Shown: positions 25,001 to 28,000 of the stretch, piece by piece
Layout: the number at the start of each line of letters is the position of its first letter
Position numbering within the stretch: the stretch's first letter is position 1
Assembly (NCBI RefSeq): GCF_044647545.1
Contig: NZ_CP172818.1
From: Escherichia coli
GTDB lineage: Bacteria > Pseudomonadota > Gammaproteobacteria > Enterobacterales > Enterobacteriaceae
Reading direction: 5' to 3' (one strand)
Length of the DNA stretch: 64,000 nucleotides
Made by a program: the position numbers

Positions 25001-28000
25001 CATCTTGCACCATGCCAGTGAGTTTGATATTACCTGGCTGCGATGTCTCCTCAATCAACATATGGTAATCCGGACCAATACCATCAGCATATTCCGCCAC
25101 CTGTTTCATGGCCCCCGGCGTAAACATCCAGTCGTAGTTGTAATTAACCCAGCTTCCGTCCGGCTGTTTCTGCTGAGTTTCGTTCCAGTCGGTATAGGCA
25201 ATCAGCTGTACCAGATTGAGGTCCATGCCCATTTTAGGTTCCAGCTCATTCTTAATACGCTTCAGTTCATCGGCATCAAAACATTGCAAATAAACTTTGT
25301 CGTCCTTACCGGTGTAACCATATTTCTTCAGCACTTCCAGCGTTTTTGCCGCAATATCCTTCCCTTCCTGATGATGGAACCACGGCGCTTTAATCTCCGG
25401 GTAGATACCAATATTTTTCCCGGTAGAGTGATTTAACCCCTGAACAAATTCAATCTCTTCTTCAAAGGTGTGCACCCGGAAGTCGGACTTACCCATTGGG
25501 AAACGCCCCGGATAAGTCTGTACTTTCTTACCGTTTTCAATATCGAAACCTTCGGTAAATTTCAGTGACTTAATTTCATCGAGCGTGAAATCTATCGCGT
25601 AGTAACGACCGTCTTTGCGCGCCCGATCCGGGAAACGATCGGCAACATCAGTAACACGATCGAGATAATGGTCATGCAGAACAACCAGATGGTCGTCTTT
25701 GGTCATCACCAAATCCTGTTCCAGATAATCCGCTCCCTGCGCATACGCCATCGCTTTTGCTGGCAGCGTATGCTCCGGCAAATATCCACTGGCACCGCGA
25801 TGGGCGATGACTATTTTTTCGTTGCTGTCCGCCGCCATTGCACTGCTTCCCATGATCATTCCACTCATCATGATCGCCATGCTAAGGTTTTTCAGCGTCA
25901 ATTTCATGCCATTAGCCTCCGTTGCGTTTTTGCAGTAATTCCTGATGGCGACGTTTTTCGCCAATCATCACAACAATCAACAAGATAACCGCCAGAATGC
26001 TGCCGCCAATCATTACCATAAAGCCGCCATCCCAGCCGAAGAAGTCCACGGTGTAGCCAACAATCGCGCTCGCCGCCACCGAACCGCCCAGGTAACCAAA
26101 CAGCCCGGTAAAGCCCGCTGCCGTACCTGCCGCTTTTTTCGGTGCCAGTTCCAGCGCATGCAGACCGATCAGCATCACAGGGCCGTAGATCAGGAAGCCG
26201 ATAACAATCATACAAATCATATCTACGGTTGGGTTACCTGCCGGGTTCATCCAGTAAACGATAGTCGCGATGGTCACCAGTGTCATAAAGAAGACGCCGG
26301 TGGCCCCACGGTTGCCACGGAAGACTTTATCCGACATCCAGCCGCACAGCAGGGTGCCCGGAATGCCCGCATACTCATAGAAGAAGTAGGCCCAGGAGGA
26401 TTTATCCAGCGCGAAGTGTTTCACCTCTTTCAGATAAGTCGGTGACCAGTCGAGGATGCCGTAACGCAGCAGATAAACGAACACGTTGGCGATAGCGATG
26501 TACCACAGCAGTTTGTTCGGCAGCACGTACTGCATGAAGATTTGCTTCGCCGTCAGCTCCTGTTCCGCTTTTTCGTTATAGTCGTCCGGATAATCATTTT
26601 TGTACTCTTCGATCGGCGGCAGGCCACAGGATTGCGGGGTATCGCGCATCATCGCAAAGGCGAACAGTGCCACCAGAATGGCGCAGAAAGCGGGCATATA
26701 GAGCGCCGCGTGCCAGTCATTGAACCAGGCCATCCCCAGCAGGAACAGCAGCGGCGGAATACCACCACCGACGTTGTGCGCACAGTTCCACACTGACACA
26801 ATGCCGCCACGTTCTTTCTGCGACCACCAGTGCACCATAGTACGACCGCACGGCGGCCATCCCATCCCCTGGAACCAACCGCAGAGGAACAACAGTACAA
26901 ACATCACCGCAATGCTCGACGTCGCCCACGGCACAAAGCCCATAAACAACATCACTGCCGCCGCCAGAATCAAACCTGCGGGCAGGAAAACGCGCGGATT
27001 CGAGCGATCCGATACCGAACCCATGATGAATTTCGAAAATCCATAAGCAATCGAGATCCCCGAAAGGGCAAAACCTAAATCACCGCGTGAGAATCCCTGC
27101 TCAACCAGATAAGGCATAGCGAGCGCAAAGTTCTTACGAACCAAATAGTAAGCAGCATAGCCAAAGAATATCCCCAGGAAAATTTGCCAGCGCAATCGAC
27201 GATAAGTCGGATCGATCTCCGCAGCAGGTAAGCGCGCTTTGTGTGGCGCTGGTTTAAAAATACTCAACATTGAAAGCCTCCGTGGCCCGTGGTCTTATTT
27301 ATGATTAACAGACTGATTCAGTGGGAGAACCTGCCGTTTCTTGAGTTGCCGCGATGTTAAGAAAACATTCATAAATTAAATGTGAATTACCGCACACATT
27401 ATTAAATACGATGGTTTAAATGTTCAGAATGACGCATGAAATCACGTTTCACTTTCGAATTATGAGCGAATATGCGCGAAATCAAACAATTCATGTTTTT
27501 ACTATGGCTAAATGGTAAAAAACGAACTTCAGAGGGATAACAATGAAAACTCGCGACTCGCAATCAAGTGACGTGATTATCATTGGCGGCGGCGCAACGG
27601 GAGCCGGGATTGCCCGCGACTGTGCCCTGCGCGGGCTGCGCGTGATTTTGGTAGAGCGCCACGACATCGCAACCGGTGCCACCGGGCGTAACCACGGCCT
27701 GCTACACAGCGGTGCGCGCTATGCGGTAACTGATGCGGAATCGGCCCGCGAATGTATTAGTGAAAACCAGATCCTGAAACGCATTGCGCGTCACTGCGTT
27801 GAACCGACCAACGGCCTGTTTATCACCCTGCCGGAAGATGACCTCTCCTTCCAGGCCACTTTTATCCGCGCCTGCGAAGAAGCAGGGATCAGCGCAGAAG
27901 CTATAGACCCGCAGCAAGCGCGCATTATCGAACCTGCCGTTAACCCGGCACTGATTGGCGCGGTGAAAGTTCCGGATGGCACTGTTGATCCATTTCGTCT

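Follow-up and report, generated by a model that had tools for sequence, protein, structure and literature searches.

A conserved block with apparent GlpR and FNR constraints in the divergent glpTQ–glpACB control region of Escherichia coli

The 272 bp that separate the divergent glpT and glpA genes in the 64-kb stretch of Escherichia coli DNA analysed here (the window) are very probably the shared control region of glpTQ and glpACB, with CRP acting on glpT and with GlpR half-sites and a degenerate FNR site on the glpA side. Judged by conservation across related genomes, one block within these 272 bp appears to carry overlapping GlpR and FNR constraints. The locus is that of the K-12 glpTQ–glpACB control region of Larson et al. 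1992 and Yang et al. 1997. It is a region that is already known, and it is among the most heavily annotated control regions of E. coli; for glpTQ, 21 sites for five factors are given in RegulonDB 8.5.

Locus and comparative data

The spacer between glpT (minus strand) and glpA (plus strand) runs from 27271 to 27542 and is exactly 272 bp long, as the earlier note had it. It is flanked by an open reading frame of 452 amino acids on the minus strand that reaches 27270, where the glpT start codon ends, and by one of 542 amino acids on the plus strand that begins with the glpA ATG at 27543. The gene names proposed in that note are borne out by NCBIfam equivalogs and by RefSeq (Table 1), and further equivalog matches identify GlpQ past GlpT, and GlpB and GlpC after GlpA.

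An 801-bp query spanning the spacer had matches in 5419 of the 5426 complete E. coli genomes, where the annotation was always glpT on one side and glpA on the other, and it was 100% identical to the sequence of strain FDAARGOS_497. Compared with K-12 MG1655, the spacer carries 11 substitutions (96.0% identity), and the adjacent parts of glpT and glpA are 98.7% and 97.3% identical, respectively. One substitution falls in the spacer of the CRP site (27389, A for G) and five are consecutive at 27413–27417, the least conserved stretch; no conserved motif base is affected by any of the 11. The stretch from 27428 to 27545 is identical to that of MG1655, so the elements on the glpA side are all unchanged and work on K-12 is directly applicable to them.

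Using GlpA as a protein query, we collected 80 loci from Enterobacterales genomes, of which 57 have divergent glpT and glpA genes with a spacer of 249–276 bp. These 57 loci and the window make up an alignment of 58 sequences (Enterobacteriaceae), to which all counts out of 58 refer. Near-invariant stretches comprise the glpT Shine–Dalgarno region, the glpT −10 region, the TGTGA and GCACA of the CRP site, CATGAAATCACG (27435–27446), TTTCGAA (27453–27459), GCGAATATGCGCGAAATCAAACA (27466–27488), TRTGGCTAAAT (27503–27513) and AAAACGAAC (27519–27527). Chance levels were taken from 2000 composition-matched (dinucleotide) shuffles of the AT-rich spacer.

Table 1 Features of the glpT–glpA interval, with positions given in window coordinates
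Feature	Position	Strand	Basis and remarks
glpT CDS (glycerol-3-phosphate transporter)	25912–27270	−	NCBIfam equivalog NF008433, 976 bits; RefSeq annotation agrees
glpT Shine–Dalgarno GGAGG	27277–27281	−	Sequence reading; within conserved block 27275–27290, near-invariant (n = 58)
glpT transcription start glpTp1	27347	−	Mendoza-Vargas 2009 (−77); the numbering of Kurabayashi (PMC5352689) implies 27349
glpT −10 hexamer TAACAT	27354–27359	−	Box of the Mendoza-Vargas 2009 supplement; conserved block 27353–27360
CRP site 1, core tgtgaattaccgcaca (27381–27396)	27378–27399	.	Centre 27388.5, −41.5 for glpT; 13/16; DNase I footprint (EHEC)
Candidate weak CRP site 2, AATGACGCATGAAATCACGTTT	27428–27449	.	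Centre 27438.5, −91.5 for glpT; 10/16; window p ~0.002
Tandem direct 10-mer, TATGAGCGAA then TATGCGCGAA	27461–27480	+	Core of the repeated element; both copies resemble GlpR half-sites
Candidate glpA −10 GAATAT (P1)	27468–27473	+	Inferred; a separation of 132 bp between the glpT and glpA starts would imply a start near 27479
Best GlpR-like operator (predicted), TATGCGCGAAATCAAACAAT, that is, TATGCGCGAA then ATCAAACAAT	27471–27490	.	15/20 to consensus; 12.6 bits
Degenerate FNR-like site, ATGCGCGAAATCAA	27472–27485	. (minus strand TTGAT-TTCG-CGCAT)	Centre 27478.5; 7/10, background score
C27477, G27478	27477–27478		Conserved in 58/58 and 56/58; fit the GlpR CG core; free N4 spacer for FNR
A27484	27484		Conserved in 58/58; fits FNR; GlpR consensus wants G
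ACA	27486–27488		Conserved in 58/58; fits GlpR; outside the FNR core
TRTGGCTAAAT, candidate extended −10 (TRTGn + CTAAAT; P2)	27503–27513	+	Inferred; FNR class II glpA promoter, start near 27520
Weaker GlpR-like operator (predicted), AATGGTAAAA then AACGAACTTC	27511–27530	.	14/20; 6.8 bits; two 20-bp steps from 27471
glpA Shine–Dalgarno GAGGG	27532–27536	+	Sequence reading
glpA CDS	27543–29171	+	NCBIfam equivalog NF008313, 1107 bits; RefSeq annotation agrees

CRP and the glpT promoter

The CRP site that had been called good by eye is the best CRP-like 22-mer of the window: when the flanks (AAATGTGA-N6-TCACATTT) are included, 13 of the 16 specified bases agree, more than at any other site in 64 kb, and this score was reached by 14 of the 2000 spacer shuffles. 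The core has one mismatch to TGTGA-N6-TCACA (9/10), and only three sites in the window are this good; cores with two mismatches are about as frequent as chance predicts (26 against 25.8 expected). Both half-sites, TGTGA and GCACA, are invariant in the 58 Enterobacteriaceae. A DNase I footprint of CRP–cAMP has been published for the enterohaemorrhagic (EHEC) allele, AATGTGTGCGGCAATTCACATT (Kurabayashi et al. 2017, PMC5352689), which is the reverse complement of CRP site 1 except at the spacer base 27389, where it has G and the window has A.

Data from 5′ RACE and 454 sequencing locate the glpT transcription start at −77 relative to the ATG, under the label ‘Known glpTp1’ and with CTTAACAT as its −10 box (Mendoza-Vargas et al. 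2009, supplement). This distance puts the start at 27347 and thereby the centre of the CRP site at −41.5, the class II position. Transcription of glpT proceeds leftward from 27347, and CRP–cAMP at the class II position overlaps the −35 region. A weaker candidate site (Table 1) includes the conserved CATGAAATCACG; RegulonDB reportedly lists a second CRP site at −91.5. Expression of glpT sets fosfomycin uptake, and CRP and FNR raise it anaerobically (PMC5352689).

GlpR half-sites in the tandem repeat

On the glpA side, the earlier note had quoted a repeated string, which corresponds to 27456–27483, and had suggested that it might contain GlpR half-sites. The GlpR consensus is reportedly WATGTTCGWT-AWCGAACATW; in K-12 this form is matched at 20/20 at the glpD promoter and then at 14/20 in 20-bp register, and it has three matches of 14–15/20 upstream of glpF. 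Each copy of the tandem 10-mer at the core of the repeated element agrees with WATGTTCGWT at 7 of 10 positions, with half-site scores of 7.0 and 6.1 bits (p ~1–3e-3), and both are similar to half-sites of the glpFK (AATGAGCGTT) and glpD (TATGAGCTTT) operators. Tandem 10 + 10 repeats with at most one mismatch are found at only three loci in 64 kb, this one among them; a repeat finder did not report the tandem 10-mer at 27461–27480 because it has no exact 6-base seed.

We scored operators with a half-site matrix built from five K-12 operators of glpD and glpFK only, themselves chosen by their match to the consensus; the matrix is thus independent of the glpT–glpA region. The best operator in the spacer is not the direct-repeat pair (8.0 bits at 27461–27480) but the second repeat copy joined to the inverted half ATCAAACAAT, a refinement of the initial reading, and this 20-mer at 27471–27490 ranks fourth among about 64,000 window positions. 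The fifth rank is held by a GlpR-like 20-mer at 27379–27398 that overlaps CRP site 1. The 20-mers at 27471 and 27511 lie in 20-bp register, with a poor 20-mer between them, and those at 27461 and 27419 are offset from this register by 10 and 12, respectively. AAAACGAAC, part of the 20-mer at 27511–27530, is conserved in the alignment, and the invariant bases within 27471–27490 include the CG at 27477–27478 and the ACA at 27486–27488.

Scores at or above the 99.9% background quantile of the window were obtained for 57 of the 58 species at 27471, for 39 at 27379, for 33 at 27511 and for 31 at 27461. The best GlpR score was reached by 44 of the 2000 shuffles (p ~0.02), and a set of four 20-mers scoring 6.65 bits or more, the number seen in the spacer, arose in 7 of the 2000; the count of single half-sites in the spacer is not significant (257 of 2000 shuffles). 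The repeated element therefore scores above background, the opposite of the result that the earlier note had named as speaking against its suggestion, and its identification as GlpR half-sites is supported, with operator boundaries that are predicted. One further operator candidate, inside glpA (27917–27936, rank 6), was set aside as a weak lead: its high score is confined to Escherichia, and no second operator stands in tandem with it.

According to this analysis, the conserved block at 27461–27490 would carry GlpR half-sites, with TATGCGCGAA and ATCAAACAAT forming the best operator; weaker operators would flank it at 27461, 27511 and 27419, and another, at 27379, would lie over the CRP site. 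By binding here, GlpR would block access to the glpA promoter until it is released by glycerol-3-phosphate, and glpT is said to be repressed at a distance from these operators. Reviews describe GlpR as binding operators near the glpT promoter (PMC4790336).

The layout resembles that of K-12 glpD, in which a GlpR operator begins within the −10 hexamer and 20-bp tandem phasing follows: glpD CTAATATGTTCGATAACGAACATT and the glpA block CGAATATGCGCGAAATCAAACAAT are identical at 17 of 24 positions, with an AATAT −10-like overlap in each. The glpD operator matches the GlpR consensus at 20/20, compared with 15/20 for the glpA operator, and the glpA operator has an FNR-type ATCAA half-site, unlike that of glpD. 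In glpFK there are four GlpR operators and two overlapping CRP sites, the operators concerned being O2 and O3 (PMC5493358); the 20-mer over CRP site 1 is reminiscent of this arrangement as a matrix prediction only, and the overlap may reflect the similarity of AATGTGA to WATGTTCG.

An FNR-like site inside the repeat

No canonical FNR site is present in the spacer, in agreement with the visual search reported in the earlier note: the best agreement with TTGAT-N4-ATCAA consists of four matches at 7/10, a level equalled by 1888 of the 2000 shuffles. What that search overlooked is one of these four, a degenerate site inside the repeated element, ATGCGCGAAATCAA, which cannot be recognised by sequence score alone and in which the ATCAA half is perfect and invariant.

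Published binding data bear on the degenerate site. The D154A variant of FNR protects a region of 70 bp, and TTGAT-TTCG-CGCAT is named as the motif within it (Kurabayashi 2017, PMC5352689). In the ChIP-chip study of Myers et al. 2013, the hns/stpA double mutant is the only strain with a called FNR peak at glpT/glpA; the two genes appear only in Tables S7, S8 and S11, and neither the list of wild-type FNR peaks nor the matrix-predicted sites of Table S6 include them. At the aligned position, 32 of the 58 species have a site with two mismatches or fewer, and a Serratia locus has TTGTTCCTTATCAA, with one mismatch.

The conservation of individual columns (27477–27478, 27484 and 27486–27488; Table 1) suggests that GlpR and FNR both constrain the same DNA. 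The two motifs are alike, so that conservation is unable to separate them fully. With an FNR site in this block that is degenerate but intact in its ATCAA half, a repressor and an anaerobic activator would share DNA. GlpR and FNR may compete for 27471–27490.

Candidate glpA promoters

The starts of glpT and glpA are reportedly 132 bp apart. This spacing would put the glpA start near 27479, preceded by the hexamer GAATAT (P1), and the weak CRP-like site centred on 27438.5 would then be at −40.5. In 11 of the 58 species, the second base of the hexamer is other than A, which counts against P1 as the conserved promoter; the block at 27461–27490 could be conserved partly as a −10 hexamer. Relative to the glpT start, the FNR-like site is centred at −131.5; a glpA start at 27479 would put this centre at about −0.5, and a putative one near 27520 would put it at −41.5.

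The last of these distances draws attention to the conserved TRTGGCTAAAT. Ten of its eleven positions are identical in 56–58 of the 58 sequences, and the remaining one, 27504, is A or G only. Read as an extended −10 element (P2), it begins its CTAAAT hexamer 29.5 bp from the FNR-like centre at 27478.5, in agreement with the geometry of class II FNR promoters. The stretch between the FNR-like site and TRTGGCTAAAT is variable in sequence and constant in length across the alignment, and in Serratia, where the FNR site has one mismatch, the same 28-bp distance to TGTGGCCCAAT is kept. In contrast to class II FNR promoters, the FNR-like site of E. coli has mismatches at 3 of 10 positions and the hexamer has no A at −11. 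The lack of this usual A counts against P2, as do the invariant G27507 and C27508, which exceed the needs of a −10 element. A generic sigma-70 scan gave one match, at chance level.

If P2 is used, FNR would be at −41.5 on the composite site and CRP site 2 at −81.5, and the GlpR operator at 27511–27530 would lie over the start. That P2 is a second glpA promoter, or possibly the real one, is a reasonable but unproven reading of these sequences, and the promoter may already have been described; it is unlikely that an extended −10, FNR class II promoter of glpA near 27520 is both real and undescribed, and it would be new only if no glpA start at this position is given in Eiglmeier 1989 or Larson 1992. 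The supplements of Kim 2012 contain no entry for the glpA start, and Mendoza-Vargas 2009 covers glpT only. Upstream fragments of Salmonella showed hypoxic induction of 886-fold for glpA and 27-fold for glpT.

Several other readings of the spacer were discarded. No RNA element was matched in Rfam at E values up to 1, and a 10-bp hairpin at 27496–27521 (z = −1.7) is confined to E. coli. A leader mini-ORF (R-TG GCT AAA TGR) has invariant third-codon positions and no Shine–Dalgarno sequence. A possible IHF core, AATCAAACAATTC, agrees by eye at 12/13 but lacks conservation of the TT at 27490–27491, and a sigma-54 reading of TGGC finds no GC at the required spacing.

Alternative explanations

The repeat could be kept mainly as promoter DNA (−10 GAATAT) and FNR DNA, in which case GlpR would bind at other positions, and motif similarity together with AT-richness would account for the GlpR-like score. 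The published FNR footprint does span the block (PMC5352689), A27484 is invariant although it is not the consensus base for GlpR, and the shuffle test gives the best GlpR score a p value of only 0.02 and the half-site count no significance. However, the CG at 27477–27478 is invariant in what is for FNR an unconstrained spacer, and so is the ACA at 27486–27488, outside the FNR core; the block also parallels the −10/operator overlap of glpD, where the operator is a 20/20 match, and the GlpR matrix threshold is passed in 57 of 58 species. We regard this explanation as decidedly unlikely. Even less credence, to the point of being exceedingly improbable, goes to the view that the repeat arose by chance and has no separate function: the tandem 10-mer is short, has one mismatch and was not reported by the repeat finder, and its first copy is less conserved (T27461, A27462, T27463 and A27465 vary), but just three such loci occur in the 64 kb, the second copy is almost invariant (n = 58) and both copies have half-site p values of ~1e-3.

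It is also very unlikely that the block is chiefly an NsrR target that links glpA to nitric oxide stress. The predicted NsrR half-sites, ACGTTTCACTT (27444–27454) and AACATGAATTG (the reverse complement of 27487–27497), lie on either side of the repeat, not over it, and have low scores in the CFT073 study, and 27491 is poorly conserved; these points stand against a ChIP-seq peak at glpT/glpA in CFT073 and the down-regulation of glpA under nitric oxide stress. NsrR could, moreover, be an added layer of control rather than an alternative to GlpR and FNR.

Implications

With GlpR half-sites and a degenerate FNR site as the preferred reading of the block, the interval would serve both operons, CRP acting from a class II position on glpT and the GlpR/FNR block lying on the glpA side. 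What the comparison contributes is of modest value: GlpR and FNR constraints that appear to be superimposed in one block, and a conserved downstream element, TRTGGCTAAAT, to which it draws attention.

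Conserved block in the glpT–glpA spacer

The glpT–glpA spacer (27271-27542) contains an 11-bp block, T-R-T-G-G-C-T-A-A-A-T, in which ten of the eleven positions are the same in 56–58 of 58 Enterobacteriaceae sequences and the remaining one, 27504, is only ever A or G. The flanks of the block are variable, and its distance from the ATCAA half-site of the degenerate FNR-like site (27472-27485) is constant, with the block lying 28 bp downstream. The block is unaccounted for by CRP, GlpR or FNR motifs; our best guess is that it is a candidate extended -10 element. It is overlapped by an inverted repeat, the arms of which (TTTTTACTAT and ATGGTAAAAA) lie on either side of GGCTAA; as RNA, the repeat gives a predicted 10-bp hairpin (z = -1.7), and its left arm varies in other genera.

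The 11-mer TGTGGCTAAAT, as found in the block, is also present in the coding region of K-12 glpD (positions 2037-2047 of the sequence L003), where it codes for MWLN. The expected chance of such a match within 2.2 kb is around 0.002; despite this, the match is probably a coincidence.

Spacer identity to K-12 is 96.0%, and the adjoining coding DNA is less diverged. Six of the 11 differences fall in the stretch of lowest conservation in the spacer, five of them at consecutive bases (GGTTT versus TTACA).

Features of the spacer and matches to regulator motifs
Feature	Position	Location	GlpR matrix score or rank in window
GlpR-like 20-mer	22663-22682	inside nrdB	16.9 bits, among top two
GlpR-like 20-mer	22873-22892	inside nrdB, 210 bp from the other	13.6 bits, among top two
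GlpR-like 20-mer	27379-27398	coincides with CRP site	11.6 bits, rank 5
Low-conservation stretch	27409-27417	spacer	
NsrR half-site match	27444-27454	spacer	
NsrR half-site match	27487-27497	spacer	
Inverted repeat	27496-27521	spacer	
Conserved block	27503-27513	spacer	
GlpR-like 20-mer AGCGCGCATTATCGAACCTG	27917-27936	inside glpA	rank 6

Matches to regulator motifs

In E. coli CFT073, an NsrR ChIP–seq peak at glpT/glpA has predicted half-sites beneath it (PMC5320621), and these are matched in the window at 27444-27454 and 27487-27497.

The GlpR-matrix matches in nrdB are probably due to chance, arising from a CGTTAACG core. The candidate inside glpA scores high in Escherichia alone and is without a tandem partner; internal operators were reportedly described by Larson in 1992, and this candidate could be among them or could be distinct from them. 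The score of the 20-mer at the CRP site may reflect a mere resemblance between the CRP and GlpR motifs. This predicted site overlaps a CRP site, as operators O2 and O3 of glpFK are reported to do.
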